NCBI GenBank assembly: GCA_964016885.1
Contig: OZ024740.1
Coordinates: 156,178,001-156,242,000 of the forward strand
Source: Eledone cirrhosa
Lineage: Eukaryota
Reading direction: 5' to 3'
DNA length: 64,000 nucleotides
The first letter of the stretch is position 1, and the number at the start of each line of letters is the position of its first letter. Positions 3,522 through 58,784 of this stretch are shown piece after piece. A program made the translations under genes and the position numbers. A model generated the notes under the pieces. The model was given only the letters and a program-made list of their open reading frames with translations. It was not told the origin of the DNA and made no database searches.

Positions 3522-6500
3522 TTAATATTTTAATATTTTCTTTTCTTTTTTTGTAACTCGTGATAATGCAACATACATCTGACCATGTGAGAAGAATTGT
3601 GTTGGTAGATATACACCTATCTTTTCAAATGTCTGCCCTTGTGCCTTGTTGCATGTAAGAGCAAAGGCTGGTTTGACAAGACATTGCTTGCGAGTAACGG
3701 TGAAAGGGAACTCAAGTTCTTGAGATACATGTGGTATTCTTGGGATTAGCAACCTTGTTCCAGCATTGGGACTCAAGGCGACTTCAGCTTCAATTACATG
3801 ATTATGTAAACTGATGAAGATGTAGCGTGTACCATTGCAATGCCCGTTTAGAAGATCCAGATTTCTCAGAAGCATGATGCAACTGCCTTTCTTCAGTTGA
3901 AGTATGTGTGTTTGGAAGCCTGATGGGGTAAGTTTGTTAATGAACTCAATTGGATATTGCAGTTCATTATCTACTGTATCAGAGCTTCTGTAGATTATTT
4001 CATGACCAGGGAACTTATTGTCCATGAACTCATTCACCAATCTTGCTGCATCATTTGTTGGAGTGATAATGGCTCTATTTGCAAGCCATAGTGGGTTTGT
4101 GTAGTTTCCTGGAAGATTTGTATACACAAAATCACACAGTCCAGACATATTACCATATTCAAGACAAAGTTCATTTGCCAGAAGAATTGTGAATGCACCT
4201 ACAGTTGGTACAGTTGGGATGTTACCATTTCCCACATCAAGAACGTAGTTTGTAAACTGTCTTTCATCAGAATCCTCTGCATTAATTAACCGTTGATTGG
4301 TTGTCATCTCCATGGTTCCCTTATAGTACCAGAGATAAGATCTCTTATTGGTTGTCTCAACTATTTGTGGTCTAGCACCCTGACGTACAACTGGAATAAT
4401 TTGCTTCCAGTCACCAGATAGTAATACTGTTAGACCACCAAACGACTTTTTCCAATCTCGAACATCTTTGAAGCTCCTGTCAAGGCATTCAAAGATATGC
4501 TTATGTCCCATACCTATCTCATCAATGATTAGCAGGTCAGCTTGCTGCATAAGTTTACTTGTGGCATGCCTATTTGTGAAGAAGTAAGTTGATTCAGCCG
4601 TCACATTGAGAGGAATCTTGCACTTGGAATGAAGAGTTCTACCTTTGTGAAGCAAAGTGGCTGCTATTCCAAGTGCAATTGTTTTTTAGATCGAGGTAAT
4701 CCAATATGATGTTGATGACATAGCTCTTTCCTGTGCCTGCACTTCAATTCAAGCAGAAAATTCTACTTTCATTTTCATTTACAGAGGTGATTACTTTGTG
4801 AAAAATAACCAGTTGCTCAGGATTCAATGTTGGCAGAAGTTCATTTATGTTTGCTTGCAGTTGGTGTGTATTGAACTAAGTTTCTGCCATAAGAACCCTG
4901 TTGATTTCTGGTATGGCAATAATAGCTGGGTCTGGCCGAGGAAGTCCATAGTTGGCATGAATGTCCAAGCCATCATGTTGAAGTCTTTGTTGGATCTTCT
5001 GTAGAACAATCTGCACGGTTTGCATGGACATGACTTGCACATGACGTTCATGCATGATATCCTCTGCAAGACAATTGTTCCATTTCTCACAGAACTGCAG
5101 AGGGTCATTTGGCATGCTGTACAATAAAATGGTGCAGAAGATCTCTCGCAGCTGAGGACCAAGCGTAATGGATGAGGTCTCTTCCATAGCTTTGTATTTT
5201 TATCCATCTTCATCCAACAGACCAAGTTTCCTGCATGCTTCTTGGAATGTTGGAAATTCAACTTCTTCAATTGTCCTCTAATCTTTGTATAAAGTTGACC
5301 CAGCCTTGTGATGTAGGATCATCCTGAGGTAATATAATTCAGATTGATGTCTACTGAGAGATACTGTTGGAATACGCCCAAGAGACTCACTCATAAATTG
5401 TTGATCACCATCCAAATGTCCCTTTTTTCTTCTTTGCCCCTTTTTGTTTGTCCAAGGGAAATATTTAGGAATAGCAATATACAATGTTTTGTGCCAGTGG
5501 GTCTCTAATATTCAGTTGAAAATATTCCGTCAACTTAGTCATTGGCTGTCCCCTAGAAACAATACTTTCTTCCTGCCCTCGCTCATACACGACCATTTGT
5601 TCCCAAGGTAAATGGTAAGGCAACTTTTCAACTGCCGGTTTCCGATGATGTAATGGAAATTTATAGATTCTCCAGAATGCTTCACTGGCTGAGATGTTCC
5701 ATGCGTTGATATAGGTCTCAATCTCATTTTGGGTATGGACACAATTTCCTTGATCATCCTTAATAGTGAAAGTGATCTTGTCTGATCCTTTTGTGATGTA
5801 CTTATATAAGTACTTAACAACCTTGACACTGTGGACAACCTCACAATTGATGTGGCACTGATATCTCAATGAGAGGAAAGGGTTGTATGGAACAATCCAA
5901 TGATCATCAACAGTTGACCTTTAAGTTGGATTGTATGGGTGTGACCACCATGCTGCCTATCCCTTCTTCTATATCCCGGAAAGGAATTTTCGGCAACAAA
6001 TGTGGTTTGTCTGAATGCATTAGGATAACTTTTTGAGCAATAGCGTTGTTGACCCAGCTCTTCCATACATGAGCACATCATATTAGCTTGTCCACGTGGG
6101 CCATGAATGTTGCAGGATATGATGATCTTATGCAGAATTGGATTGGTCTCTTTATCAGGAATCTCACAGTACACTACCTGATCAATGTCATCAGCAGTTT
6201 TGGGCTTGCTATCTTCAGCCATTATCAGCAGAATATGAGCATGAGTGAGGTCTCGTTTCTGCCACTCTATTGGAGCAGAATGAGCCACAACTTTTCCGAG
6301 CACATATTTTTCCAGTATGTCATCCACGAGGCTGTCATACTTGATCTTGAAGACTCTTGCACAAATATCAGGACGGTCTCTAGGTTCTTCACCAGGGTGC
6401 AAAACTATTTTTATTTCATTCCAGTTAGAGTTAGTTGTTACCGCGATGAAATAAGATGGCTTTCCCATGTGTCGAACCACAGTCATCGAATTCTGAAAGC

Positions 6501-7759
6501 ACTCACTGTAGAAGCGTGGGGAACCATAGATTGAAGGAGGAAGAACAATTCTACGGTCTGCATTTACTGAATCTCCTTCAGCCACAGCATCATACAAACT
6601 CTCATACTTTTCGGCTCGTATCATGGTTTGATTGTTGCGGGCCCATTTGAGGCGACAATGTTCTATTTTTGCCTGGGCATCTACAGTATATTGCTGCTTC
6701 AGCCGCCTGTTCTCCATGAAACCGATAACAGTAGAAATCAGTGGGTGTGAGTGTATGGTTGTTGTCAATCTTTTTCAAACCAACCTGAAACCCATCATTC
6801 CCCCAAGGAAACAGTAGCACATAATGCAGAGGATCATTAGAACTGTGCAACTGATGAATTCTCTGAAGACCATCTCTTTTATGAATGACGACACCCAAGA
6901 GACCTAATGCTGTATCAGGTTGAATAATAGCAATCGCAGATTGTGCGACAAAATCAGTGGGTTTTACTTTGTCAGCATGTAGGACAATATTCACATTTTC
7001 AGAGATTGGCATTTCAATGACTGCTTTAAAGCTTCTTATATAAGTGTTGCAGTAGTGCAAGTCTTGTTGCAGGTCCTGCAGGGCAGCAGCATCTAAATTA
7101 GCATGATGCAAGTGATTCTGAAGCTCATGATCTGTTTCATAGAAGTAAAGCTTCGCAAACTTGGGTGAAGTTGGAAGTAGTGATCCAATAATAAGACAAA
7201 TCTTACCTTGGATCTTAAATGTGGAACTAAATCCTGGTGCTTTAATCTCTTTGCAACTAATTGAAGCTAAGGCAAGCACATTGTTATATGCACGTATCTT
7301 AAGGACAAAAGAATTTCCTGCTTGTGTGATATCGAAATATTTCAGTATATTTGATGGAGGAGGAGGAAGTTGAGGGAGTTTCACTTTTCCCTGGAAGCAG
7401 CACAGAGATGTGGGCTCATGTGGCCAGCGATAAGCTTTGCAGTGCGGTCAAACAGAGGCAAAGAGACTCCCTGCATTATGTTGTGGCATTATGGAAAGAA
7501 CAGTTTTCTCATGGCAAGGTTCATGCGTAGGATTCTTTGCCAGACCTTCAATTGACCTGTTCCTTCCTCTCTGAACGTTTGGTGTATTTGTTGCAAGTTG
7601 TTGTTGGTGTGTTAACTGAATTACATTTGTAGAAATTTGTTGGGATGTTGTAGAGCGATTATTGTTTGATTGATTTGCCCTCTTCTCTCTTTGTCGTTGT
7701 GCGTTTGCTGCCATTCGTTGGGATTTAGATGAGAAATATTTTCTGCGTCCCATATTCAC
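3522..7759 (-). pseudogene. Helitron RepHel (Zn finger, HUH Rep, PIF1-family helicase); frameshifted
   Basis: PHCKAYRW..CC..GKV zinc finger, EWQKRDLTHAHILL (HUH motif), KYLYKYITKG (catalytic Tyr), IIDE, GDWKQI, MLLRNL..GHCNGTR, KAQGQT, HGQMYVALSRV. Confidence 0.95.
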
Positions 7760-12135: not shown

Positions 12136-12151
12136 ATAACAATAACAATTA

Positions 12152-15100
12152 TAATAATAGTTTCTTTATTGGCCACAAAGGCTAACACGAAGAAAAACAT
12201 TACAGACGGCACAATGGTACAGGACGATACAATACTAATTGGGTTTTGACCCATGAAAAAAAAAAGGTTATAACAAAAATCATAGAAATGTGTATAAACA
12301 AATTAAAAAATTCAAACAACAAAAATTCCCCAAAAAGGGGGAAACCTCCGAGGGTCACTCGTGGCGAAAACCACACAAAAGACCTCGACTACCCTGATCA
12401 CCAGAGCAAGCACTCTCTCTCACTTTTCCCACTCCTCAGTCTACAGGCGCATACTCAGAGCGGGCCCGTTCACTCGGACCAGACTCTCCACTTTCACCCA
12501 CTTTTCAACAAACTTACTAGAAGACAGCACATGCCTCTCCACCCTGATTTTCCTCTTCAAGTGAAACTTGAAAAAGTTAATCAGGGATTGGCCGGAGAGG
12601 AAAGTCTTCGTCTTTAATCCTTTCAATCTTGTTCACCACACAATCTCTTTCGCCATGGCTACCAGGCAGATGAAAACTGCTTGCCCTTCCTTCTCCTTAA
12701 AGGAGGGTGGTGGACCTATCTGCACAATGGACTCAGTCGATAACCGGATCCGTCCTACTCGCAACAGCAACTGTTCAACATAACAATGCTCGGAGACTGA
12801 ACGAGTGCGTTCACGACGATTTCGTCGCCCTGCGCACATCTGGGACAGGCTCGGCTGACAGCACTTCCGTGTCTGTAGAGCTTATCTCGAACCGGCAACG
12901 CTCCTCGGTACATTCGGGAAATCCAGACGGTATCTGTCAGTTCAAAACGTCTAAGCAGGTTTGTGAGGTCTTTACATCCTTCTCCCCTATCTACTATCCC
13001 CACATAATCCCAGCGTGCATCTAAGATACCGTTCCAGTCGCCCACTAACATTAAAGAGCGGGACGTTCCCAGAAAATTCTCTAGACGTCTTAAGAAATCT
13101 GGCCGACCTGCCCCTGTTGGGGCGTAGATGGCTACTAGCCTGAAAGCATTGCCTTCGCTGCCGGTCACGTCCAGCACCGCCAACTTAGCTTCTGGGTCCA
13201 GGAAGATGGCCCGTATAGCGAGATCGAAGCCTCTCCGAAAAAGCACAGCAACTCTGCCTCCCGCTCCCGTACGGCTGGGAGATGCGGTATACATCATAGC
13301 CGCCGAAGATCGGTGCAAAAGCTCGTGCTTCGGAAATGCTGGTCTCGCTGATGGCTACCACATCTATGTTTAGTGACCTGAGGTCGTTAAGCAGGCGGCC
13401 TTGTTAACAAGATGACCACAGGCCACGTACATTTACACTGCCTATTCTAAGTAAGGCCATGTTGGATGAGGAACGGTGTAAGTGAGAACCGATCACTTAC
13501 CTTGATCGTGTGGAAAAGGGACCGTCGAACCGTCCCTTCGTCCGGTCATGGGTGTCTCCAAGATAATATTCGTGTATATCCTCTTGGTAAGCGACCATCT
13601 GAAGTCCCCAACTGCGTTGGGGAATTTTTGTTTGAACTGTTTGTATTGTTCCAGTTTGAGCTCAACGATTTTTATGTTTTTCGGTAATGTTCTTGGTGTT
13701 GGTGGGGTGTAGTAATTGTTGTCTGTAATGTCTGAGAGTTGCTTTATATGTTCCATGAGTTCTTTATTTGCAATGTTTATGGCTGTGTAATTTTTGGGGT
13801 GGGGTTTGGTTTTGTTGCTGCTGTTGGGTGTGTGTGCCTTGTTGTGTTTGCGATGTTTGTGTTTGTGGTGATGCTGGTGGTGGTGTGATTGTTGTTGGTG
13901 GTGATGCTTGTGGTGGTGGTGGTGTTGCTGTAAGTCGCCTTGAAGCCTTTACACCTGTTTGTTTGCCCTCGCTTTTGGAGTGCGAAGCTAAGGGGTCTTC
14001 CTTTTCTTTTTATAGCAGACCTTTTGCCACTCCACTCCTGCTTCACACTCCATGTCGGATTCCGTGGGGTCTGGGAGGGGTATGAGCTCCAAGGCTGTTG
14101 GTGGTGGTAGTGGAGCCCACTCCGGCGATTTTGTCGCCGGTGTAGCTACTGCGACTGTTGGTGTTGCCGCCACTGCTGCCGCTGTTTTAGTTGTCCGTGA
14201 CCTTGGTATGGGTGCCACGGACGTTGAAGAGTTGTACTCCTTCTTCGAGGTCTATAATGTCCGGGATTGCCTCGATACACAACTGGTTTGTTTTGATTAG
14301 CATTTGCATTCCAATACCTGACCAGTTCTCCCGCTCTATCCTCTGCACTTGCAGCGTGGTCATCCTTTCCTCGATTCCGGCGAGGACAGACGCGGCCAGC
14401 CAAGGTATGGGCACGTTGGGCGGGACCTGGGTCACTTTGACCTTCACAATCTTCTGTCCGCAGTAGGAGGGTACCAACACTATCTCCTCACTCTTTAGGG
14501 TTACCAAGGAGTGAGACTTCGCCTCTTGCAGCGTGGCAAAAAGCACGTCCACAGTGGCATACGTATAGCCTCGGATGATGTGGGTTTTATGTGCCCACAC
14601 GTATCGCAAGGCCTTTTGAATTTGAGCCTCCGCTGCTCTCTCCACCCGATGTGATTTTTTGCTTATCATACGATACGTCACCGTAAGCAGCTGTTGGTCT
14701 TTGAAAAAAATCGGGTGGAGGTTTCAGGGAGATTCGATTGGCTTTTCTAGTCACCATGGCCCTTGCGACCACCATCTTTACATTCCGGACCACCCCCGCA
14801 AAAGAAATGGTCCCTTTTTCAGCGGCACCTTTGTTGCTGCCGCTACTGCTGCTACTGGTCTTGTTGGTGGTGCTGTTGCTACTGCTACTACTGATGTTGT
14901 TGGTGTTGCTGCTGATGCTGCTACTGCTGCTGATGCTGCTACTGCTGCTGGTCTTGTTGTTGGTGCTGTTGCTGCTGCTACCGCAGCTACTGCTGTTCTT
15001 GCTGTTGCTGTTATTGTTTTCAGAATTTTGGCTGTTCCACTCTATGGACAGCTAGCCATTCTGTTTAGCGGTGGTGGTATTGTTGTTATCATTTATGTTG

Positions 15101-21496: not shown

Positions 21497-21900
21497 GTGG
21501 ATTGGCAGTATCGGTAGAGGGTCGGACACCATGCTTTGAAGCATAAAGTTACCTCCCTTTATGATCTGAGTTCAAATCCCGCTGAGCTTAACTTTGCCTT
21601 TCATCCTTACGGGGGTCGATAAAATAAAGTACCAGTAATGTATTGGTTAATTGCAGGCCTTGTGCCAAAGGTAGAAACAATAGTTATATATATATAAAGG
21701 GCGTTGGATTGGCAGTATCGGTAGAGGGTCGGACGCGATGTTTTGACGCATAGAGTTAAGGCCCTTACCATTCTGAGTTCAACTCCCGCCGAGGTTAACT
21801 TTGCCTTTGATCCTTACGGGGTCGATAAAATAAAGTACCAGTAATGCACTGGGGTAATTGCTGGCCTTGTGCAAAAAGTAGAAACAATTATTATTATTAT
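21497..21900 (+). mobile_element. Two tandem tRNA-derived SINEs (core resembles Deu/Nin-type domain)
   Basis: Units at 21497-21682 and 21698-21900, each with A/B boxes, AACTTTGCCTTT(C/G)ATCCTTACGGGGTCGATAAAATAAAGTACCAG core and GGCCTTGTGC..GTAGAAAC tail; the second ends in (ATT)n. Domain name is from recall. Confidence 0.9.
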
Positions 21901-22083
21901 TGGTTTGATAGGACGTCTTTTTGATCGCTCTATTTACTTGTTATAATTATTTGTTGTTAATTTGTTCTTGTTGTGTAAGTTATATAAGCCCTTGGACTTT
22001 ACCCTGTGAAGGGGAAAGTATAATATTTGGGCCTTTTGGCCCAAATATTTGAACATTTTACTTTTTAAAATTATAAAAAAAAC

Positions 22084-24064
22084 ATGGCTGAGCCACGCCC
22101 CCCAGCTATATGTCTGCTGTCGTGTGACAACGGCTAAAAGTTGAGAGGAGGGTTACAGAAATTGATACAACAAACACCACCACAAGCAACGTGAACAAAG
22201 ACAACAATGACAACAACACTGAGAACACTAATTTTGAAAAAATTACCACACTAACTACAACAATTAGTTAAATACCATTCTTTCATCTGATACAACACAA
22301 TAAAGACTAAAGTGTTTAAAAAAAAAAAATTATGTTGAAGACTACAACAATAACAGCGACAACAAAAATACAGACAACATAAAAAAATGACAACAAATGC
22401 AACAACGATATTAACACAACTAACAAGAAAATAAACAACGACAACACCAACAGCAACAAGAACAACAACTACGGTGGAAGCAATAACACCAACAACACGA
22501 CCAGTAACAGCAGTAGCAGCAGCAATAATGGTGCCGCTTAAAAAGGGACCACTTCTTTCGCAGGTGTGGCTCGAAATATAGAAACAGTGCTAGTCACGGA
22601 GGGGGAGATGGCAGTCGCAAGGGCCATGGTGACAAGAAATGATAATAGAGTTTCCCTGAAACCTCCACCCGATTTTTTCAAGGAGTAGCAGCTACGCACG
22701 ATGACTTACCGCGCCGTAAGCAAAATGTCACATCGGGTGGAGAGAGCCACAGAGGCTCAAATCCAAAAGGCCTTGGGGTGCGTCTGGGCGCGCAAAACCC
22801 ACATCACCCGAGGCGAAAAGTATGCCACAGTAGACGTACTTTTCGCCACCCACCAAGAGGCGAAGTCTCACTTTTGGAAACCCTAAAGAGTGAAGAGATA
22901 GTCTTGGTGCCTTCCTACTCTGGGCGGAAAATTGTGAGGGTCAAAGTGACCCAAATCCCGCCGCGTCCCTTGGCTGGCCGCGTCTGTCCTAACTGGAATC
23001 GAGGACAGGACCACCATACTGCAAATACAGAGAATGGGAAGAGAGAACTGGTCAGGTATAGGCGTGCAAATGCTAATACAAACTGACGAGGAGTGTATCG
23101 AAGCCATCCCAGATATCATAGACCTCGAGGAAGGAATCCAACTCCCTATAAGCGTGGAAGGAAGGCGTCCAAAGTGCTATCTCTGCGGGCAAAAGGGTCA
23201 CATCAGGGCCTTTTTCCAGCAGAAGACAGCCAAGAAGAGGCCCCTTCCCTCCTTCCGACACCTGATCCGCTGCTACCAAGAGCAGGGCAGGCAACAGAGA
23301 CAGAAGACTCTTCCACGGTGAGTAGGAGGGCAATGTCCATGGTACCCATACCAAGGCCACGGACAACTAAAACAGCGGCAGCAGTGGCGGCAACACCAGT
23401 AGCTACATTTGGAGTAGCTGCACCAGCAACAAAATCACCGCAGAGTGCTATACTACCACCACCAACAGCCGTGGAGCACATACCCCTCCCAGACGCCACG
23501 GAATCCGACATGGATTATGAGGCGGGAGTGAAGTGGTAAAAGGTCTTCCACAAAAAAACAAAAACGAAAGAACCACTTAGCTTCGCCCTCCTAAAGCGAG
23601 GACAAACAAAGGGTAAAGGCTGCAAGGCGACTTGCAGCAACGCCACCACCATCACCACCACAAGCACCACCACCAACAACAACCACACCACCACCAGCAT
23701 CACAAACACAACAAAGCACACACACCCAACAAGAAAAAAAGCAACAAACCACCCTCCCCTCAAAAAGTACACAGCTATAAATATTGTGCACCAAGGACTA
23801 ATGGAACATATAAAACAGCACACCAATATTTCAGACGCAAATTACCACACCCCACAGACACCAAGAACATTACCACAAAATATTAACATTGTGGAAATTG
23901 AACTCGAAGATTACAAACAAATAAAACGAAAATTCCCCAACGCAGTTGGGGATTTCAGATGGTCGCTGTCCAAGAGAATCTATACAGATATCATCTTGGA
24001 GACACCCATGACCAGCCGAAGGGACGGTTCTACTGTCCATTCCCCACATGATCAAGGTAAGTGA
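22084..24064 (+). pseudogene. Tx1 ORF1 (Asn/Thr-rich N-terminus, putative RRM-like core, CCHC knuckle, Pro/Thr-rich C-terminus)
   Basis: VEGRRPKCYLCGQKGHIRAF knuckle; homologous segments in copies A, B, D and E; stops and frameshifts. Confidence 0.85.
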
Positions 24065-24095
24065 TCCTTTCTCACTTATCCTGTCCTCACCCAGC

Positions 24096-27000
24096 ATGGC
24101 CGTACTTAGAATAGGCAATGTAAATGTACGTGGCCTGAGGTCATCTTGGAAGCAAGACCACCTGCTCAACGACCTCAGGTCACTAAACATAGATGTGGTG
24201 GCCATCAGTGAGACCAGAATCTCTGAAGCATGAGCCTTCGCACCGATCTTCGGCGGCTACGATGTATATGCATCTCCCAGCCGTCCAGGATCGAGGGAAG
24301 GAATTGCTGTGCTTTTTCGGAGAGGCTTAGATCTCGCCATACGGGCCATCTTCCTGAACCCAGAAGGTAAGTCGGTGGTGCTGGACGTGAGCGGCAGCGA
24401 AGGCAATGCTTTCAGGCTAGTAGCCGTCTATGCCCCAACAGAGGCAGGACGGCCAGATTTCTTCAGACGTCTAGAGACCTTTCTGGGAACGTCCTGCTCT
24501 TTAGTGTTAGTGGGCGACTGGAACGGTATCTTAGATGCATTATGTAGGGCTATTAGACAGGACAGGAGGGTGTAAAAGCCTAAACAACCTGCTCAGACGT
24601 TTTGAACAGTCTGACAGGTATAGACTGGATTGTCCGAATGTGTCAATGTGGACATGGGCAAACTGCATCGGGTCATCCAGATCGTATTTAGATAGGGTAT
24701 TCTGTAGGGAAACAGATAAGGCTGTCCACAATTTATAGTAGTCGACTACACTAACCACAAATGTGTGATCTGCGAAGATGACTTAGATAGACTCCATAGG
24801 CAAAGGCCCGGTTACTGGAAGCTGAACGCGTCGTACCCGGCGCGCAAAGCTTACAGAGACTGGATTAGCGAATTAATTTTAACATTACGTTGACGGGTGC
24901 GATCGTCAACAACAGGGGGTGGTTTACCCTGAAAAGGGCTATTAGAGTAGAATCGATAAGGTCTAGCAAAGGAGTAGTGATAGAGGAAAATAGAGTAGAG
25001 GGAGAGTTAATTAGAAAGCTTAGAAGAGGCGTTTAGGACAGGCATCGCAACCGACATGCTTGCGGCGAGATTGGCACTCGACCAATTCTTCAATGCAAAG
25101 CACAAAGGCTGCGTTGTCAGAGCTAGAGCGCGTGCTCTAAGACTTGAGGGGACGAAAGCCGTTGAATGGGCCCGGGTGGTAGAGGCGCGACGTGACAACA
25201 AGTCCACAATTCGGTCTTTGCCTGATCAAAACGGGCGCATGTCGCTCGAACCCGTACAGATGTGTGCGGCTTTTCAACAGCACTTTGCTCCAATTTTCAG
25301 GAGCGGCGGCGGGCCGGATCGGAGTATGGTCTACGGTGCATACCTCGACGGACTGCCGCGGCTCTCGATGACAACAGCGCATTGCTGCGAAAAGCCGATA
25401 ACAACAGGTGAAATACGGGAAGCGATGTCTGACTGCACGAGGAGTAAATCGCCAGGTTTGAATGGTCTGCCCTACGAGCTTTATGTGTATATGCCAGACT
25501 TGTTCGGCGACCTCTTGGCAGATGTCTACTGCAACTGGCAGCAGAACGAGAGCATTCCCAGTTTTGTGATCCGGGGAGCGGTGGCGCTGCTGAGAAAAGA
25601 CCCGAACAAGGTGGACGTTATAGACAACTTCAGGCCCATAACTCTGCTAAACACAGAGTCTAAGATTTTGGCCAAGGTGTTAGCAAAGAGACTGGCGCTT
25701 GTTGTCGGTTATCTGGTGGGAGAGGCGCAGATATGCGCAATTCCGGACAGATCCATCCACGACAACCTCCATCTCATGCGATACATCATAGAGAGGGTGG
25801 TTACGAAACCTGGCACGGGTGGGGCCCTGATCAACTTGGATCAATCTAAAGCATTTGATAGGGCTGACCATCAGTACCTGGCTGCAGTCCTCGAGGCGGC
25901 CGGCATCGGCCCCGTTTTTAGGGGCCGGATCGCTGCGATGCACAGTGACATTTGCTCGATTGTGAGGGTAAATGGTCACCTGTCGCAGTCATTCAGCATC
26001 TTGCGCCCTCTTGTACATATTGGCCCTCGAGCCGTTACGGCTCAAATTGGAGACGATGAGGGGGGGGGGGGGTCATACGCGAACTGGGATGAGGGAGATC
26101 CGTGTCAGCTTACGCCGACGACGTCACCGTGATGGTGTCGAGCACCAAACACGTTCAGATGCTCGGCGCCGCTTTCAAGGAATACGAAGCGGTGACAGGA
26201 GCAAAAATAAACCAGGAAAAGTCGGTGAGCTTGCAACGGCACCTGGAGAGGAAAGTCCATGCCGTCCGACAGTGTGGTGGGGCGCTGGACGGAAGGACCG
26301 GTTGAATTGCTCGGGGTCTGGTTCGGTCCGGACCTCCAGATAGAGAAAAACTGGAGCGAGGTGACAAGCAGGGTGCCCTCTCTCACACAGAAATGGGCCG
26401 AGAGAACGCTGTCTCTGAAAGGTCGGGTGAAGATGGCGAATGCGTACATAGCGTCCCTCATCTGATACCGCCTGACCGTCGTACCTTTCCCCCGCCCAAC
26501 TCTGACCAAAATGGAGCGCCTTCTCTTCCTCTTTTTGTGGAAGGGACGTGCTCCCATGTTCAGACGATCCATCTGCTGACGGTGAACAGGTGTGGAGCCG
26601 TTTGCCAGACGCGCTTTTCCCCAGCTCGTCTCGTTGACGGAGCTGCAGTCCTGGATCAGGAAAAGACCGAGGGATAACCTTGGAAGCTGGAATGTCGCTA
26701 AGCGCCCTCTACCAGCTGGGCACTAGTATCGGTGGAACATCCACCTCGGCGTTCTATAGAGGGCTAGTGGAGGGGAAGAGCAACAACTTTCTCGTGGAGA
26801 CCCTGGGCGTAGAAGACGATCAGCTGTTCGCTCTCTTCAAGAGAACTTTCTGCCCAGGGCCTATGGACAACTTCAAGAAATCCCTGGTCTGGCAGTGCTA
26901 CCGGGGAGCGTTGCTGGTACGGGATAAGCTCTACAAGCACGGAGGTGCTGTCAGCCGAGCCTGTCCGAGATGCGCGCAGAGCGACGAAACCGTCCTGCAC

Positions 27001-27304
27001 GCACCCGTTCAGAGTCCATTGTGCAGATATCCCCACGATCCTCCTTTATGGAGGAGGAAGGGCAGGCAGTTTTCATTTGCCTGGTGACCATGGCAAAAGA
27101 GATTGTGTGGTGGACAAGGCTGAAAGGGTTGAAGACGGACACTTTCCTCTCCGGCCAATCCCCGATTAACTTTTTCAAGTTTCACTTGAAGAGGAAAATC
27201 AGGGTGGAGAGCAAGTGCTGTCTTCTAGTAAGTTTGTTGAAAGGTGGATTAAAGTGGCGAGTCTGGTCTGAGTGAACGGGCCCGCTCTGAGTATGCGCCT
27301 GTAG
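24096..27304 (+). pseudogene. Tx1 ORF2 (APE endonuclease, reverse transcriptase, Zn finger)
   Basis: NVNVRGL, AISET, VGDWN, SYLDR, PGYWKLN, FRPITLLN, DQSKAFD, AYADD, CPRC..ETVLH. Confidence 0.93.
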
Positions 27305-27575
27305 TGTGAGGAGTGGGAAAACTGAGAGAGGGCGCTTGCCCTGGTGGTGAGGGTGGCCGTGGTTTTTGTGTGGCTTTCGCCACGAGTGACCCTCGGAGGT
27401 TTCCCCCTTTTTGGGGAATTTTTGTTGTTTGAATTTTTTGATTTCTATCCCGATTTTGTTATAACCTGTTTACATAAACAAAACCCACTTTGTATCGTCC
27501 TGTACTGTTCTGTGCCGTCTCCACTGGTTTTCCTCATGTTAGCCCTTGTGGCCAATAAAGAAACCATTATTATTA

Positions 27576-27685
27576 CCTGAGTTCAAATCCCGCCGAGGTC
27601 GATAAAATAAAGTACCAGTAATGCACTGGGTAATTGCTGGCCTTGTGCCTAAAGTAGAGACAATTATTATTATTATTATTATTAA
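27576..27685 (+). mobile_element. Partial SINE between Tx1 copies C and D
   Basis: B box, core remnant, tail and (ATT)n. Confidence 0.85.
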
Positions 27686-30600
27686 TGGCTGTCAGTCAGT
27701 AAAGACGTTTTTCTGGAGCTCCGCAAAAGTAGGCAATTTTCTGTTCATTTTCATTTATAATAATTGTTGTATTCTTTGAAAAGGGTCGTAAGACTCCCGC
27801 CTTTGCCCTCTGAAGGGGTGACTGTGTAATATTTGGCCCAAATATTTGAACTTTTTTGTATTTTAAAAAATTCTCGAAAAAAACAAAACAAAAAAAATCA
27901 CGCCCCCCAAATTTAAATCTGCTGTCATGTGATAGCAACCTAAATGTTGAGAGGAGGGAAGCGGCAAACACATTGATCTATAGTACAAATACATTTAGCA
28001 ACACCACCACAAATAGCATAAACAGTTGCAGCAGCAACACCAATAGTGAGAACAATAACCTTAAAAAAAAAAGAAACAACAATAATACCAACCACAGCAG
28101 TAACAGTGACAACCAAAAGACAGACAACAGAAATGATGACAACAACGAAATTAACACCACTAACCAGAACATAAACAGCACCAACAGCGACAATACCAAC
28201 TGCACCGAGAACAACAACAACGACGGCACCTAAGATATAACCAACAGTGATAAAAGCAACAAGAACAACAACACCAACGACAACAACAAGTACACTTTCG
28301 TTGAGGCAGCAGCCAAAAAATGGTCATGCTTCAACATGGACTTGACAGACAAGGAGACAAAGTTGGCCCAGGCATGGAAGCTCATCAAACAGGAACAAAC
28401 CTGGGCCAACTTAACGGTCCCGGCAGAAGCCATATAAGCGGTGGAGAAGAGAACTCTGGTCTTCAGATGCATCTCAGCTGAGACGAAAAGAGCCACAAAC
28501 TCTCTAAGCAGACGTTGAGGCTGCGCTGAGGTGCATCAGGGGAGATACAGAGTTCGTAGCGAGGGGTCGACAGTACGGCACCATCTCGGTGCTGTTTAAG
28601 TCGGAGGCCCTTGCTTTGAAGCACTCGATGACCCCTTGCAAAACCAGCAAGGTTATTATGTACCCCTCCCATATGGGAAAAATAATGATTAGAGTCCGTA
28701 TTTCCAGGATTCCACCTGGACTAGATATGTGGTGGCTCTTGGGATGCGTGATTGTGGAAGGGTCAGATGCCGTCTCAATAGATGTAACCAGGACACGAAA
28801 AGGGGACTGGTCCGGGATTGATCTGGAGATACTTCTCCAGATCAAGGGGTGACTGCATAATATTTGGACCTGTTGGCCCAAATATTTGAAATTTGTGAAA
28901 AAAAAAAAATTTCGAAAAAACAACAACAACAAAAAACATGGCTGAGACACGCCTCCCCCCTTCTCAGTCTGTCAGCGACCTAAACGTTGAGAGGAGGGAA
29001 ACGGCAAACACATTAATTTATACTACAAACACATTTAGCAACACCACCACAAACAACATGAACAACTATAGCAATAACTGTTTAAAACAACAACAACAAC
29101 AGCAATAGCTGCGACAACTAAAAGACAGACAACAGAAATAATTACAACAAAAACAACAACGAAATTAACACCACTAACAAGAACATAAACATTGACACCA
29201 CCAACAGCAACAATACCACCTGTACCGAGAACAACAACAACGGTACCAAAGATATAACCAACAGCAACAACACCAACAATAACGACGACGACAACAACAA
29301 AGGCAACACCAACAACAACGACAACAACACCAAGAACGACGACAACACCAACAACGATATAGTCAACGAAAAACAGCAAAACAGTAACAACAAAAAGAAC
29401 AACAACAGCATCAACAAAAAAGTACTTTCGCGGCAACAGTAGCAAAAAGCCAAAGGCTGTACGATTTCGATCTTACGGAGAAAAAAGAACGTTTGGCCCA
29501 AGCGGAAAAAATTATAACAAGAGAGAAAGGCTGGGCCAATTTAAACGTCCTGGCAGAGGTAATGGCAGCAAAGGAGAAGAGAACTTTAAAATATCGATGC
29601 ATTTCAGTCAAATCTGAAATGCGTCGGTAACGACGAAATAGACCATATAACAAGGGCCAGACAGTTTGGGAGCATCTTGGTGCTTTTCAAAACTGAGGCC
29701 CTTGCTATAAAGCATTCTGTGGTCCCTTGCAAAACGGACCAAATCATTCTGTACCAGTCCTACACGGGGAGGAGAACAATAAGGGTCCGTGTTCTCAGGA
29801 TTCCACCAGGACAGGATTTATGGTGGCCCCCTGGGATGCGTGGCGGTAGAGGGCCCTGACACCCTCCTCGACGTTAAATTTATAAAGAGAGAGTGAAAGA
29901 TGGTCTGGAACTGGTTTGGAGATTCTTCTCCAAATCAGACCTGAAGACATAAAAAAAACATACCGGACAACATCAAACTACAGGACGGGTATGAAATCTA
30001 GGTAGTCACGGAGGGCAAATGGTCGCGTTGTTTCGTGTGTGGTGAAGCAACACACCTGAGAGCTTTTTGCCCCAATTTGAAAACTGCAGGGGCCGCAAAC
30101 CTCCGTTGCTGCCAACACCGGTGTCGGGAGGAGGGACAACACCAGCAGCAAGAGTAAAATGAAACAGCGCCATTAACAAGGACAATTAAATCCACCCAGG
30201 TGGTCGCTGAAACAAGCTCTCCTTCTCCACCTCTTTCAAACACATACACACAGAGCAAAACGCACACACCCGTAAACACACTCCAACTCCCCTCTGACAC
30301 AGAGTCCCCAGATACCGGGTTCCTCCATTTCTCCGAGTGAAAATGAGGGGCAACCCCAAAACCCCAAAAGAAAGCACAAAAAGAAAACGAAGAATCCAGT
30401 TCCACACACACAAAAAGTACGCAAAACACCCACAGCAAATACAGACACACCCACAGCAACACCAACTCCACAACCGCCATCAACACCGGCACAAGCACAA
30501 GTCATCCCAAACAAAAGAAAACACACGCAGATACCAACAACAACAGACACACCAAACTTCTTGTTACTAAAGAGGGCCAACAAACAACTATTGGCCCTTG

Positions 30601-31233
30601 TAACATGAAGTAAAGACATTGAGAAAGAGGGAAAGATTTTTGGCACCAGCACCCTCAAAGGGCCCCAAATACTGCGATTGGTGCGGATGCCAATGTAAAC
30701 TTATAAAGATATTAGGGAGAGCTTTCCCAACTTCGTGGGAACCCCTAATGTAAAAGCCACGAGTAGGCTGCTACAGGGGTTCACAATGGAAATCCCACCA
30801 ACGATAGAGGTCAAACCACTCGACCTCCACAAGACTCCGGAAGGTAAGTAAACATTTCCTCTCTCCTTTAGCCTACCAACATGGCCATATTAAGAATAGG
30901 ATATTTAAATGTGCGTGGCCTGGGGTCATCCTGGAAGCAGGGTCACCTGCTCAACGACCTCAGGTCTCTAGAAATGGATGTAATTGCCGTCAGCGAGACC
31001 AGGATTTCCGACACGCGCGCACTAGCCCCCATTTTCGACGAGTATCAGATCTTCGCATCTGTTAGTCAGCCAGGATGGGAGGTGGGGTGGCAGTGCTGTT
31101 TAGGAAAGGCCTGGATCTCGAGGTAAAGTCGATCTGCCGGGACCCGAACGGTAAGTTGGTAGTCCTGGACGTGAACAATAGCGAAGGTGGTGCCTTTAGA
31201 CTTGTGGCCGTCTACACCCCTAAAGGGGCCGGA
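27686..31233 (+). mobile_element. Tx1 copy D: doubled 5'UTR/ORF1 start, truncated in EN domain
   Basis: 5'UTR motif aaggggtgactg..aatatttgg at 27812 and again at 28844. ORF1 ends GK* at ~30851; ORF2 ATG at 30881 (MAILRIGYLNVRG). Confidence 0.88.
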
Positions 31234-34200
31234 CGTTCATCCAGCGCCCAATGATGCTGTTGAACAGCATGGACTTGCCTCTCCAGGTGCCGATCTGCAA
31301 GCCCATCCACTTTTCCAGGTTAAGTTTTCATATTCCTTTCATATTCCTCCAATAAGTTGTCGACTTATTGTCGGAGAGAGGACATCCTCGTGCAGCCGTC
31401 AAGGGCATCCTGAATTTCAGCTGAAGTTATCGGCCTTTCGCGGCTCTCAGCGTCGGCCATCGACAGGCACGGCAAGCCGTCGAGGTGGGAACTGAAGTCC
31501 GCAACCGTCTCTGACCAGCCAATCCCGCCGAACAACCGAGCAAAATGCTGGCAAAAGGCCTCACACATCCGCATGGAATCGCTCAGCACGTGTCCGTCTC
31601 GGTCCGTCAAAGACCGAATTGTAGTTTTATTACCACACTGCGCCACTGCCACGCGGGCCCATCAAAAAGCTTTGGTTCCCTCGTTTCTCAGAGCACGCAC
31701 CTTAGCTCTGACAATGCTACCTTCGAGTTTCGCATTGAAGAAATGGTCTAATGCCATTCTCGCCGCTAGCACGTCAGTTGCAATGTCACTACAAATGGCC
31801 TCGTCTAACTTATCTACCAGCTCCCCCATCCTTTCTATTTTTCTCTAACGCTACTTCTTTCCTAAACCCTATCGAAATTACTCTGATCTCTCTTTTGAGA
31901 GCCCCTCGCCCCACCACTGTTGTTGACCCCCCCCCCCGTCAACTTTTGCTTAACTAAATTGTTGACCCGGTCTCTGTAAGCCTTACGTGCCGGAAACGAC
32001 ATGTTCGGCTTCCAGTAACCAGGTCCTAACCTACGCGTCTTATCTAGGTCGACCATACAGATCCCAAACTTGTGATCTGAATAGGTCTTAAAACGTAAAC
32101 AGCCTAAACTATTTCTATCTATTTTCATTATGAAAATCCTCTCTATGTACGATCTAGATGTCACTATGCGGTTGATCCAGGGCTACACTGGCGCATTAGG
32201 GAAGTCTAGTCGCTACCTGTCAGACAGTTGGAACTGGCTGATTAGGTACTTGAGGCTTTTGCCCCGCTCCTATCAGCTGCTCCCACACAATCCCAGCGTG
32301 CGTCTAAGATGCCATTTTACTCGCCCGCTAATAGTAAAGGGCGAGACGTACCCAGAGAAGCTTCCAAGTGCCTAAAGACTATCGTTCGTCCGGCCCCGGT
32401 AGGGGCGTAGACTGCCACCAGTCTAAAGGCACCACCTTCGCTATTGTTCACGTCCAGGACCACCAACTTACCGTCCGGGTCCCGGAAGATCGACCTTATC
32501 TCGAGATCCAGGCTGCCCCGCACCATTCCTAACAGACTAACATCGAAAATGGGGGATAGTGCGCGTGTGTCAGAAATCCTGGTCTCGCTGACGGCAATTA
32601 CATCCATATCTAGAGACCTGAGGTAGTTGACTCTTTTCCAAGGGCGACCCCAGGCCACGAACATTTAAGCATCCTACTCTTAATATGGCCATGCTGGCAA
32701 CCTGAAAGAGAGAGAGCGAAGGTTTACTTACATCCCGGGGGCTTGTGAAGGTCGGGTAGTTCGACTTCCATGGTTGCTGGGGTTTCTTTCGGGAATTCCT
32801 TTAAAAGTTTCGATGTTGGTTTCAAGTTCGGAGTACCCACGTCCTGAGGAAAGCTCTCTCGAAATTCCATTGTAGGAATCGAGCGACATACGCACCAGAA
32901 ACAAATCTTCCGGCATGAAAATGTGCTCAATTAAAAAATCTCCACCTCTGTTTGAATTTCTTTGCTTCGTGCTAAGAGGGCCATCAATTTCTCTTTGGCC
33001 CTTCTGACAAGCACGAAGTATTTTATGTTTTGCTGGTGCAGTTTTATTTGTTTGCGTTTGGGCGACTGTGATGTTGATGGTTTTGTTGGTGTTGTTTCGG
33101 GTATGTCTGTGTTTGTTGTAGGTGTGGTGTCTGTAATTTCAGGTGTCTGTGTGTTTATTTGTTCTTGTGTCTGTTTAATTTGTTTGCGTTTGGGGGATTG
33201 TGGGAATGGTGTTGGTGTTGGTGTTGTTGGGGAAGTGTTTACGTTGTTGGTGTCTGTAGTTTTTGTCGTGGGTGTTTTTGTATTTTGTGGGGGCTTTTTC
33301 TTTGTGTGTTTTCTTTTTTGCTTTTTGGTGGATTTGGGTTTTCCCTCATCTTCACTACTGGAATATAACGGGTCTGTGGCTGTAAGTGTATCTGTGTGCG
33401 TTTATGTTTTTGTCCATGTGTATATATTTAGGGGGAGGAGGAATGGGAGAGCTTTCCTCGTTTTCCCCTAGGTTAATTTTGGTGGTGGTTAGACTGTTTT
33501 TGCTGTTGGCGGGGCTGCCGGTGTCAGTGTTGGTGGAACTTTCCATGCTGGCACTGGCGTTGGCAGCAAAGGAGGTTTGCGCCCCCTGCATTTTTGAACT
33601 GAGAGCAGAAGGCTCGCAGATGCGTTGCTTCACCGCAGACGAAGCATTGCGGCCTTCCTCCCGCAGTAATCAACTGAATCATTGTCTTGTTATGCAAGCG
33701 GACAACGTCCGGGATGTTATTTAGGTCTTCTGGTTTTATTTGGAGAAGAATGTCCAAATCTATCCCGGACCAGTCTTCTCTCTCTGTCTTTTTGATATCT
33801 AGGAGGGTAGTGTCTGTCCCCTCCTCGATTACACATCACAGGTGCCACCATAGATTTATTCCTGGTGGGATCCTAGAAATGCGGACCATCACTCTTTTTT
33901 CGCTCATGTAGGACGGGTGCATAATGATTCGTTCTGTTCCGCAGGGAGGGGGGGGGGGCATTGAGTGCTTAATAGCAAGAGCCTCGGTTTTGAACAGTAC
34001 CGAGATGGTGCCGAACTGTCTGGCTCTTGCTTTGTATTCAATATCATCTTTAATGCATTCCAAAGCAGCCTCAACTTCTGCCTGGCTGGCGAATTACACC
34101 TTGCGAGTCTGCACCGAAATGCATCGAAAATGTTAAGTCCTCCTCTGCATAGTCGCTATTGCTTCGTCCGGGATGGTTAGGTTGGCCCAAGATTTCTCAC

Positions 34201-49310: not shown

Positions 49311-50855
49311 CCCGATCGAACCAGGACTGCGGAAAGCAGCGTCCGCCTATGCCGACGACATAACCGTAATGGTGTCGAAAACTTCGGACATCGGGGTAAT
49401 CGGCAACCTATTACAGGAATACGAAACGTTGACAGGAGCAAGACTAAATCCAAACAAGTCTGTCAGTTTGCAACTCGGCACATGGAGAGGCAAACCCATG
49501 CCTTCTGACCGTATCGTTGGACGCTGGACGGAAGGACCGGTGACATTGCTCGGGGCCTGGTTTGGTCCAGACCTCCAGGTGGACAAGAATTGGAACGAGG
49601 TCACGGCGAAGGTGTTTGCACTTACCTAGAAGTGGGCTGAGTGCAAACTCTCCTTCAAAGGTCAAGAGGAGGTGGCGAACACTTACATAGCGTCCGTCAT
49701 CTACTACAGCTTGACAGTCGTGCCTTGTCTCCACGAATACCTCACCCAAATGGAACGCCTACTCTTCAAGTTCCTCTGGAAGAAACAGGCTCCATTGGTG
49801 AGGAGATCCATCTGCTGTCAACACCCTTCTAGCGGAGGGCTGGGTCAAGCGAAGACCGAAAACGGGCACCGGGCACCTCGAGCGCCTTTAGGCGCTCACA
49901 GCCCTCTACCAAACGGAAACGGCAATCAGCGGAGACTCCACTTCGACATTCTATAGGGGATTAGTGGAGGATAAGTGCGACGATGTTCTCGAGGAAACTC
50001 TAGGCATCGAGGAAGACGAACTGACCAGTCTGTTCGGGAGGACTTTCCGTCCAGGGCATATGGATAACTTCCAGAGGTCTCTGGTCTGGCAGTGCTACCG
50101 AGGAGCTCTACCAGTTCGAGACAAAATATACAGGCACGGACGCCCTGGCAGAGATCCTGCCAAAAAGACCTGTCCAAGATGCGAGCAGGACATCGAAAGC
50201 GTTCTGCACGCAATTGTTCAGTGCCCAGGGGTGACCGACCTGTGGAATTGTGTCGAACAGCTACTGTCACGTGTAGGACGCATCCAGTTATCAACCGAGT
50301 CCATCGTGAGGATCACCCCGCCGCCTTCATTTAAGAATGAAGGAGAGGCGGTCTTCCTCTGTCTGGTGGCTATGGCCAAAGAGGTAATATGGTGGACGAG
50401 GTTAAAAGGATTGAGGGCAAGCACCTTTCTCTCCGGACAACAACTCATCCCCTTTTTTAAGTACCACTTCAGAAGGAAGGTAAGAGTGGAGAGAGAGGTG
50501 CTACACCCCAGTAAATTCACTGAAAGGTGGGTGAATGTGGCGAAAATGGCCCGAGTAAATGGGCCTTCTCTGTATATAAACCTGTAGGTTGAGGAAGATA
50601 AACAGAGGGAAGAGGGGAACACCTACAAAACGTTCCTGGTGTTTAGGGTTGTTCTATCCACGGTGTGTAAAACAACCCCGCAGTAGCGTTACCCCCCCCC
50701 CACCTAATGGGGATTTCAATTGTTTTATTTTTATATAGTTTATTGTTATTTATCATTGTTAAAGATTTTATGTAAAACCCCCACCGTCACGTCTTGTAAT
50801 GTCACCTTTTTGTGCGCCTCTGTGACAAATAAAGAAAGATATTTATCTATCTATC
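49311..50855 (+). mobile_element. Tx1 copy F, 5'-truncated (RT C-terminus to 3' end), divergent subfamily
   Basis: AYADD..GRWTEGPV..CPRC..ESVLH..C, stop at 50587, AATAAA at 50828, then (TATC)n. Confidence 0.92.
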
Positions 50856-54321: not shown

Positions 54322-54646
54322 CTGAAAATATACAATTGTTTTAGTGTTCCGCCAGGAAAAATAAAGCAGAAATAAATATAAACAAATTTTGTAGGAAAAA
54401 ATCATTAGAAAATATGAACTATGTACTTAAAGATTAAATATATAATGTAAAACTCTGCAGGAAAATGTTGATTATTTGAAATAGATTGCAATTATTTCTT
54501 AGCTAGGCATGTCATGTTGGTATCATTCATTGCTATAGGTTATTGGTACTGATGCATCTACCTAGAAATAAGTTGTTCACTGATGCAGTACATTAATAAA
54601 ATGGTTAAAAGAACATAAACTTTTAAGAAGCATTATCATAAATAAT

Positions 54647-55061
54647 TGTTTCTACTTTTGGCACAAGGCCAGCAATTACCCAGTGTATTACTGGTACTTT
54701 ATTTTATCGACCCCGTAAGGATGAAAGGCAAAGTTAACCTCGGCGAGATTTTAGTTCAGATCATAAAGGGACGTAACTCTATGCTTCAAAGCATGGTGTC
54801 CGACTCTCTACCGATACTGCCAATCCACCGCCTATCATAAATAATGGTTTCTTATATAGGCACAAGGCCAGCAATTTTGGGTGGAGAGGAAAGTCGATAA
54901 AATCGACCCCAGTGCGTGACTGGTACTTTATTTTATCGACCCCGTAAGGATGAAAGGCAAAGTTAACCTCAGCGGGATTTGAACTCAGATCATAAAGGAC
55001 CGTAACTCTATGCTGCAAAGCATGGCGTCCGACCCTCTACCGATACTGCCATTCCACCGCC
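54647..55061 (-). mobile_element. Two tandem full-length SINEs with triplicated target site
   Basis: Units at 54647-54832 and 54846-55061; tatcat(a/c)aataat at 54634, 54833 and 55062. Confidence 0.93.
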
Positions 55062-55960: not shown

Positions 55961-56372
55961 GACCAAGGTTCAGTTAGCTCAACACACCACTCTAAGAGTT
56001 AATTTGAGTCATATTTTGTTTTCCTCTCCTGAGCGGAAGAAAGATTCCAACTAATAAAAAAAAAATCGTAAACGCTAAAACACTCATAAATTATACGCTG
56101 CTTCTGTTAACGTAATTGTGAATTTAACAATGACATTTTCATGGTTTTATTACCTGTTTACTAGCAGATATTTTCGTGGATTGTACCAGCAAACGGCTAA
56201 ATGTCTTGACTATGCATCTATAATGGGATATTGGACAATCAACTATCTCGGATAGCTACAATTGTTATTAGAGGGGAAAAATCTTAAATATCATTACTAA
56301 TTTAATGCTTCTACAACTGGAGTATAACACCAATTTATCCATCTACCACTCTTACTGACGTGAATAATAATG

Positions 56373-56590
56373 GTTTCTTATATAGGCACAAGGCCAGCAA
56401 TTTTGGGGGAGGGGAAGGTCGATTAAATCGACCCAGTGCGTGACTGGTACTTTATTTTATCGACCCCATAAGGATGAAAGGCAAAGTTAACCTCGGCGGG
56501 ATTTAAACTCAGATCATAAAGGGGCGAAACTCTATGCTGCAAAGCATGGTGTCCGACCCTCTACCGATACTGCCAATCCATCACCCTACC
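56373..56590 (-). mobile_element. Full-length SINE with 16-bp TSD
   Basis: gacgtgaataataatg at 56357-56372 and 56591-56606. Confidence 0.93.
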
Positions 56591-57061: not shown

Positions 57062-57192
57062 AACTCCAGGTAGAAGGAGCAACGTGAAATAAAGTGTCTT
57101 GCTCAAGGACATAACGCATCGATCGGTCCAGGAATCGAACTCACAATCTCAAGATTGTGAATCCAATTCTCTAACCACTCAGCCACACGCCT
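57062..57192 (-). mobile_element. tRNA-derived SINE head with CORE/V-like segment
   Basis: TGGCTGAGTGG A box, GAGTTCGATTCC B box, then CCTTGAGCAAGACACTT. Confidence 0.7.
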
Positions 57193-58784
57193 TCACTAAA
57201 CATATATATATATCTTATTTAAAACACATTTTCCTTACATAGATATGTATAAATACTCATTCGTGTGCATCATATCGAAGGCGGCTCAACTATGAATCAT
57301 CTACATGTTTGTTTGACCTGCTACAAATAGCAATCAATTCTACTCACAGCGTATCATTTAAAAAGTAGGAGATATTTGAAAAAAGTAGATCTGAGAAGAA
57401 AATGTTCAAGATTGGAAAGTCTTTCTTTTTTATTTTCCGGTACAGCATGGATAGGCAGTGTTCATGGATTTGACTCATCTCCAACAGAGTATGGTGAGGC
57501 TGTGTGCACGGATTTGACTCAGAACATGTGATCGATTGAGTATTATATGAAAATCAAAGCTCAGATGAATTTCGAAAGCCACAAGGTTATCAAGATTATC
57601 CTTATTGAAAAAGCAGATAGGAGATCAATCAGACTGGTGGTACAGTGCATAAAATCTAGTTATTACACGTGTGATAACAAAGGCTGTTTAAGAGCGTACT
57701 CTACCGATAAAAGAAAATAGCGAATGACAAACAACATGAGAGGCAACGATAACAATAGACATTTGAGGTGCACACCAATGTTGTAGCTGCTGCTGCCCCT
57801 GTTTCTAGAATTTTATCGAATACAGGTACAGTAGGACCCTAGAAATAGAGCATCTTGCTTCCTTTTATCTGTGAACAAATGGACCATGGTTGATTAATAA
57901 AGAAAAGATTATTATCATTATTAATTGACTGACTAATTCAAATGTACGTACATTTGTCGCAAGATTTCTCACGTGTGTACTTTCAAACAAAAGAACCCTA
58001 GACATGAAGCATTTTGCCGTAAGAACCAAAATATATTTGTATTATGTTCATCAGACATGATTCTGACTGGTAGAATTTACAGAAGCACATAAAAACAATA
58101 TATTTGTGTCTTGCTTGGCCTTGCCAATCCACAAAGGCCATCCAAGAACTTCATTAGATGTAATTAGTGGTAACCACTTAGAATGAAATCTATTTTATTG
58201 AGAGATATAAAGTATATAAAAAGATATACGTCATCTTAAAATAGAGAACGAAACGAAAACACAAGCCTATATAAAACAAGATACACCTGCGCATAAACTA
58301 TCACCAAAATATTTGGGAAAGCAAAACTCGAGGTTTACAGTAAAGTGACAGTCATTAATGTGACGCAATATCGCCAGATGGTTAGTGCCGACTGAACGTT
58401 TAGTGTTATATGGGGGTATCCCTGGGCATACAGATTCTCATGTTCTAACAAGATTATAAAAAACTATCCCAGATTTGTATCATTTAATAGAAATCAAAAT
58501 CTCTCAGATTGACCATTAAGGTAGAAAGTCCGGCTCGCGGCAGACAACACAAGTACGCGCAGGTGCACGACGTAAAACAGAGCCATGGGAGTCGTGTGAT
58601 AGGAGTGACAAGGACGAGATTATTTGCTCTTGAATCTCCAGAGTTGCGTCAGGTGTCGCAATAGGAACAACAACCTCCGTAATTTGTTGCTGTTGTTACT
58701 TTCTCCTGTTTAAGTCTTCCAGTCCAAAAGCCTTTTAAATGACATTTTTTAAATGACATTTTTCAAGTGTGTACAAGCTGCATT

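Follow-up and report, generated by a model that had tools for sequence, protein, structure and literature searches.

A SINE and a Tx1-like LINE with a common 3' end and common ATT target sites in Eledone cirrhosa: a probable stringent-type pair

A 64,000-nucleotide (nt) stretch of the Eledone cirrhosa genome (assembly GCA_964016885.1, contig OZ024740.1, forward-strand positions 156,178,001 to 156,242,000; hereafter the window) contains short interspersed elements (SINEs) joined head to tail with a long interspersed element (LINE) of the L1/Tx1 type, and raises the question of which enzyme copies the SINE. We propose that the SINE and the Tx1-like LINE are probably a stringent-type pair, in which the SINE ends in the final ~30 nt of the LINE, shares its ATT sites and strand, and is copied by it in trans. 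Because the two elements have nearly identical ends, use the same ATT sites and lie on the same strand, the SINE likely uses the copying enzyme of the LINE. The initial annotation of the window had suggested such a SINE/Tx1 pair with an (ATT)n tail. The suggestion is supported by a shuffle-tested tail, covariation, retention of the LINE end and a strand-specific ATT target, and it is from these that we infer what the terms 'stringent' and 'mobilised by' express.

The common end of SINE and LINE comprises 24 nt plus (ATT)n and aligns in register and without gaps. The full-length LINE in the window, copy C, ends GCC-CTTGT-GGC-CAATAA-AGAAACC-(ATT)3 at 27542-27575 (+), and the SINEs end in GGC-CTTGT-GCC, six variable bases, AGAAAC(A/C) and ATTAT. 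The SINE occurs as a long form, which is older, and a commoner short form. Ungapped identity to the LINE end is 24/30 for the long form (18/24 minus the repeat) and 23/30 for the short form (17/24 for the 24-mer); likeness stops at the hairpin, with none further 5'. The tail strings cited in the initial annotation are present in copy C, in LINE copy B (12182-12151, -) and in a long SINE (56395-56366, -). The 3' end of copy B (12151..12186, -) has the same hairpin, with the loop TTTGT, and an (ATT)n tail. In copy C, the sequence and its alignment place AATAAA (27554-27559), AGAAACC and (ATT)3 in a linker at 27553..27575 (+). AATAAA is absent from the SINE and is the main difference between the two ends, the spacing being kept. 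Its loss would be expected for an RNA made by RNA polymerase III, in which a polymerase II signal is needless.

The match was measured against a profile built from 100 SINE tails, with LINE ends scored in bits. On this scale the LINE end reaches 19.7 bits when the repeat is left out and 25.6 bits when it is included, and the match lies 0 nt from the repeat. When the last 60 or 150 nt of the LINE were shuffled, 19.7 bits was reached in 0/20,000 mononucleotide and 0/5,000 dinucleotide shuffles, and the match thus withstands the comparison with shuffled controls that the initial annotation had called for. The best shuffled matches in a 2-megabase (Mb) search space score 16-21 bits, so the significance holds for the LINE terminus and not for a free genome-wide match. 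Contigs of three other organisms hold the terminal 31-45 nt, mostly at least 90% alike, which could be LINE or SINE ends. In some contigs of other organisms the middle of the 3' untranslated region is scantily covered or not covered at all, which we do not count as evidence.

The common end includes a predicted hairpin with a stem of three base pairs (bp), at 27542..27552 (+) in copy C (GCC-CTTGT-GGC; GGC-CTTGT-GCC in the SINE), whose stem changes are paired. The middle pair is G-C in 134/155 SINE tails and C-G in 56/61 LINE-type tails, a set in which 29 loci were chosen for LINE subfamily C and one is a false hit. At the outer pair, the 61 LINE-type tails have G-C (48), A-T (7, all in one LINE subfamily) or G-T (4). 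All three pairs are intact in 135-141 of the 155 SINE tails. RNAalifold, unprompted, predicts only the 3-bp helix with the CTTGT loop. In the stem alignment 93% of cells are paired, and covariation reaches 0.389 compared with a maximum of 0.077 for slid partners.

Copy C (21902..27565, +) is a full-length but decayed element of the L1/Tx1 superfamily, recognized by its 5' head motif and by Pfam matches; the initial annotation had overlooked both its full length and the SINEs on its two flanks. The head motif is common to 11/20 other copies fetched. A remnant of open reading frame (ORF) 1 lies at 22950..23318 (+) and weakly matches a CCHC zinc knuckle (E 0.004, short of the Pfam cut-off). The broken ORF2 (24234..27305, +), the end of which was located, contains pieces of an apurinic/apyrimidinic (AP)-type endonuclease (24234-24572), a reverse transcriptase (RT; 25011-26129) and zf-RVT (26638-27084), all on the plus strand. 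Relatives of copy C carry open ORF1 and ORF2 frames, and their ORF2s match Exo_endo_phos, RVT_1 and zf-RVT. The best match among solved structures is human L1 ORF2p (E 1e-51, versus 4e-21 for R2). With an AP endonuclease, RT and C-terminal cysteine-rich domain in an ORF2 closest to L1, the LINE belongs to the L1 superfamily.

The open ORF1s of two relatives encode an intact CCHC knuckle, CX2CX4HX4C, and a CCHC zinc knuckle in ORF1 is a feature of the Tx1 clade. The LINE also has its target in more than 20% of flanks, the share that Kojima's rule sets for a Tx1 target preference. It is therefore likely, from target habit and ORF1 type, that the LINE is a member of the Tx1 clade; architecture and target habit, and not a tree with named references, are the grounds for saying 'Tx1' in place of 'L1 superfamily'. 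No named Tx1 protein occurs among the matches listed (120 of 358 homologues), the cluster members or the atlas clusters, and the named protein nearest to the RT region in this listing comes from the octopod Argonauta hians, at 73% identity.

The LINE retains this end across its subfamilies. The motif lies 235-331 nt behind the ORF2 stop in 16/21 ORF2 C-termini with room downstream; the five others comprise one with a decayed hairpin, two that are broken off before the end, and two more. Among representatives of seven subfamilies, identity is 31-59% along the untranslated region (UTR) but 83% in a terminal block of 25 columns, and the ORF2 ends of the subfamilies are 55-79% identical in protein. 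As the motif occurs in deeply split LINE subfamilies, the tail appears to have passed from LINE to SINE. Sister subfamilies (L080, L068, L158 and L163, and window positions 50584-50850, +) end in and insert into (ATCT)n, and are a target switch inside one lineage. The same hairpin is found in (ATT)n- and (ATCT)n-ending subfamilies. Since subfamilies change between (ATT)n and (ATCT)n without losing it, recognition of the RNA and choice of the target would evolve as separate modules. At L068:1178-1290 (+), the final ~35 nt of an ATCT-type LINE end have been copied again as short tandem repeats, with a stem variant that does not pair.

The SINE and the LINE insert at the same sites and in the same orientation. 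Around copy C, a chain of elements runs along one strand: (ATT)n, SINE, SINE, (ATT)n, full-length LINE C, (ATT)3, truncated SINE, (ATT)n and the 5' part of a second LINE. SINE copy 1 (21498..21679, +; identified by blastn to the SINE of the window, its 5' flank and its tail) is of the short form and has an (ATT)n run in front of it. SINE copy 2 (21705..21886, +; blastn), also short, has an (ATT)n tail (21887-21901) that runs directly into LINE C. SINE copy 3 (27576..27684, +), which is 5'-truncated and has an internal deletion, sits directly behind the LINE tail and carries an (ATT)n tail at 27663-27684. LINE copy D follows (27686..31300, +, ends approximate), a 5' part of another subfamily with 65-78% blastn identity to the element at L081.

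Beyond the window, the survey set consists of 99 unselected 10-kilobase (kb) stretches at round coordinates (990 kb), supplemented by L-numbered loci picked for single families. ATTAT lies at most 28 nt upstream of 42 of the 74 near-full-length SINEs that make up the 5'-flank set, against a background of 5.6%, and the opposite-strand ATAAT is found in 7/74 of these flanks. For the LINE, (ATT)n precedes all 11 head-bearing subfamily-C copies (of 20 fetched), of which four are preceded by a SINE tail and one by the tail of another LINE; a full-length ATCT-type copy sits behind (ATCT)n. Conversely, a SINE follows 5/10 ATT-type but 0/12 ATCT-type LINE tails in the unselected sample, and 11/30 selected LINE tails, compared with a background of 1.4%. 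The head-to-tail adjacency is therefore mutual. Duplication lengths of LINE and SINE are not comparable because LINE junctions fall inside ATT runs.

The SINE is short, non-coding and present in high copy number, with 5'-truncated copies and target-site duplications. We counted 141 tail-bearing copies in the 990 kb, which extrapolates to ~400,000 in the 3.0-gigabase assembly. Duplications were found in 33/92 copies, compared with 2-7 of ~91 mispaired controls; a few of the 33 are local tandem repeats. They measure ~9-21 nt and mostly begin at the ATTAT behind AGAAAC. In the window, a long-form SINE (56362..56590, -) has a 19-nt duplication with one mismatch that starts with ATTATT, and a head-to-tail SINE pair (54641..55056, -) has an ATTAT-led duplication at all three junctions. 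Short SINE tails lie at 21863, 27639, 49096 and 55200 (+) and at 34886, 54670 and 59673 (-). Neither ARAGORN nor Rfam gave a match to a transfer RNA (tRNA)-type SINE head in the window, and the head has no cloverleaf fold; box-like strings in it were seen by eye. The central domain may resemble that of Deu/Nin SINEs; string searches of the supplements of two papers gave no match to it. A 'CORE SINE' label was withdrawn. Median divergence is 7.3% for the short form (n=67) and 12.6% for the long form (n=16), and 4.4% for LINE subfamily C (n=30, selected as best matches and thus biased young).

By analogy with the L2 model, as outlined in excerpts of PMC4176376, the following mechanism is the most likely. 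The ORF2 protein (ORF2p) of an ATT-type subfamily would nick the AAT-bearing strand with its endonuclease and bind the predicted CUUGU-loop hairpin. Reverse transcription would be primed by the terminal AUU units of the RNA, once paired with the nicked end, and ORF2p would copy either its own RNA or, in trans, that of the SINE. Each insertion would regenerate ATTAT behind the new tail, and this fresh site would account for the head-to-tail chains. The SINE would have received its tail from the LINE and lost only AATAAA.

Several observations weigh against this pairing or against the part that the hairpin plays in it. Besides the repeat, the two elements have only 24 nt in common, and these are 71-75% identical. 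The stem has just 3 bp, about two evolutionary events account for its covariation, and the pair-type measures stay within the range of shuffles (198/500 and 107/500). Folding energy of the hairpin is no better than that of shuffles (z +0.55 to -1.27), and the long SINE cited above favours another fold. Some ATT-type subfamilies score 8-12 bits (ungapped), below the ATCT-type ones (19 bits). LINE copies lie in longer ATT runs than SINEs, with (ATT)3 in just 3/74 SINE flanks; LINE duplications are inseparable from the microsatellite, and most truncated 5' ends cannot be fixed. The weakness of the hairpin and the few covariation events, together with the position of AATAAA inside the conserved LINE block and the tolerance of the SINE for single ATTAT sites, would suit an account in which the LINE moves the SINE but recognizes it by terminal AUU pairing alone, the hairpin being a leftover of template switching and the LINE end being conserved mainly for AATAAA. 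We consider this unlikely: the SINE retains stem, loop, AGAAAC and exact spacing yet not AATAAA, the three stem pairs hold in the great majority of SINE tails, and the ATCT-type subfamilies retain the hairpin despite their other repeat. Capture of a SINE tail by the LINE through read-through, which would give homology without dependence, is the least probable account that we weighed. SINEs do stand directly behind LINE tails at the frequencies given above, but the motif is present in all LINE subfamilies seen, including the ATCT-type ones with no SINE behind them, and the split among LINE subfamilies is far deeper than the SINE divergence of 7-13%.

A different LINE might instead have supplied the tail, and the initial annotation had named L2 and R4/Dong as families that could match it better. 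In our survey of rival LINEs, which covers ~1 Mb of the assembly and in which Pfam domains and known motifs are the basis for the clade labels Dong, RTE and CR1, no other terminus matches. An internal 24-mer of an R4/Dong-like family, Dong-A (L053:7300-7380, +; L141, L156, L160), is about equal to the Tx1-like end, at 19.1 bits, and this too weighs against our reading. Its score was reached in 2/20,000 mononucleotide and 0/5,000 dinucleotide shuffles, it has the same 9-nt spacing within the motif, and it is slightly closer to the older long SINE (19/24) than the LINE is. Most loci with a Dong-A 3' end also hold an R4-type ORF end. Age profiles, which the initial annotation had proposed to compare, do overlap between SINE and LINE, but Dong-A copies, diverging by 0.8-9.4%, overlap the SINE as well, and the Tx1-like LINE is not singled out. 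Even so, it is quite improbable that the tail came from Dong-A and that this family moves or moved the SINE. The Dong-A motif ends 49 nt short of the (CATA)n tail, inside the 3' UTR, and folds as the loop of another, long stem, which has -20.4 kcal/mol across 80 nt. Against the short SINE, the commoner form, this motif matches at 16/24 positions and the LINE at 17/24. The SINE avoids CATA sites, with CATACATA in 0/74 near-full-length SINE 5' flanks, and has neither the terminus, the repeat nor the target orientation of a Dong partner. Dong-B, which shares the microsatellite, was rejected as a partner: it has no tail match (2.8 bits) and lies on the opposite strand, ending in (AAT)n on the sense strand and meeting the SINE at 3/14 loci and the LINE at 3/14, solely tail to tail. 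Dong-C, three RTE-like families, including those with (GAT)n and (TAGA), and a very young CR1-like family were also rejected, none matching the tail above 8.8 bits. Penelope-like ends were viewed, and none is named among the matches of the profile scan, in which they were not scored separately. The survey being limited to 990 kb and targeted loci, and a CR1-like fragment (L126) lacking a located 3' end, the true partner could be a LINE from another clade, such as L2, Nimb/I or a further Dong family, that is extinct or fell outside the sample, with the Tx1-like LINE sharing just the microsatellite niche; Dong-B shows that unrelated clades use the same microsatellite. We regard this as highly improbable, as the sampled non-SINE matches of at least 15 bits (repeat included) are all, by eye, SINE remnants or Tx1-like ends, and chance would have to supply the in-register tail and the strand together.

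Partnership of the SINE with the Tx1-like LINE, which we thus prefer, is unusual for the LINE group involved, as textbooks class LINEs of the L1 superfamily as 'relaxed' elements that read poly(A). Among the closest known systems is SINEU of crocodilians, for which a Tx1-clade mover, Tx1-Mar, has likewise been proposed, with a common target preference and tandem insertions around a duplicated site. According to the excerpts of PMC4494074, SINEU was assigned to Tx1 by its target alone; it has U1/U2 heads, a poly(A) tail, a Mariner target and no LINE with its 3' end, whereas the present SINE has the LINE 3' end and an (ATT)n target. The same excerpts describe Kibi, Koshi and related Tx1 families, which resemble the present LINE in their subfamily-specific insertion into simple repeats. 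Compared by description, their targets are (TC)n, (TTC)n, (TTCC)n and (TTTC)n, and those of the present LINE (ATT)n and (ATCT)n. An L1-clade terminal block with a compensated hairpin and a partner SINE is known from ZmSINE2/3 and LINE1-1_ZM and from SINEX-3_CR and L1-1_CR (PMC3472496, PMC3747384, in part). These plant and green-alga pairs have 50-80 nt in common, T- or A-repeat ends and hairpins of -10.8 to -17.7 kcal/mol; the present pair differs in being from an animal and in its 24 nt, 3-bp stem and microsatellite target. For UnaL2, ZfL2 and their SINEs, too, the unit proposed to be recognized is a stem-loop with a short terminal repeat (excerpts of PMC4176376), but they belong to the L2 clade and are proven by assay, whereas the present pair is of the L1 superfamily and known from sequence. 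In that paper 'TX1' denotes a mutant rather than the clade. Mollusc tRNA-type SINEs with LINE-like tails of 35-61 nt are also similar, but in the sections concerned of PMC11481361, PMC4824008 and PMC4758252 the partners in bivalves and other molluscs are CR1, CR1-Zenon, L2 and Nimb rather than L1/Tx1; the octopus SINEs OR1 and OR2 are named there among mollusc SINEs.

A SINE and a LINE with a common tail are thus a known kind of pair, and the animal L1/Tx1 version is new relative to the portions of the literature compared. Table 1 of PMC3747384 (58 pairs) contains no animal L1/Tx1 pair, and in the excerpted survey of more than 800 families from that paper three SINEs have L1 tails, only in maize/sorghum and Chlamydomonas. 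PMC5786205 does not mention Tx1. Cephalopod repeat papers report L1-Tx1 and abundant SINEs with no partner named in the parts concerned (PMC13282606, PMC8967140). The literature searched held no report of this SINE/LINE pair; Repbase, Dfam, SINEBase, subscription papers or supplements may record one. On balance, and with modest confidence, we suggest that this is the first stringent L1/Tx1-type partnership in an animal, joining a SINE of ~400,000 extrapolated copies to a microsatellite-homing Tx1 LINE whose ORF2p would read a minimal 11-nt hairpin and in which RNA recognition and target choice would be separate modules. If so, a pair from an animal, with so small an RNA signal, would allow the origin of relaxed recognition to be tested by changing a few bases. 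The element that probably drove a major octopod SINE expansion would also be identified, and the chains of SINEs and LINEs at ATT microsatellites would be accounted for.

Other repeats were observed in the course of this work. A second SINE family shares the body of the SINE described here but has a longer and different tail, which ends near (CATA)-like repeats (L037, L043, L073, L085, L136, L138, L153); its partner is possibly a Dong family. Two of its copies lie tail to tail in L037. At L037:670-1600 (+), seven or more truncated SINE units form an array that is in part a 115-nt local tandem duplication. An abundant young R4/Dong family (L091-L104), whose selected copies diverge by ~1%, inserts into the same ATT/AAT microsatellite but on the other strand, and three element types therefore pile up at one class of site. 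The very young CR1-like family (L171-L176) has more than 120 matches identical over 165 amino acids, ends in (AAAGAGT)n and always runs into (TA)n. Within the window, a further repeat with a tRNA-like head lies at 57080-57200 (-), and its body may resemble the CORE domain. Broken frames at 3522-7447 (-) read, by eye, like a Helitron Rep/helicase.

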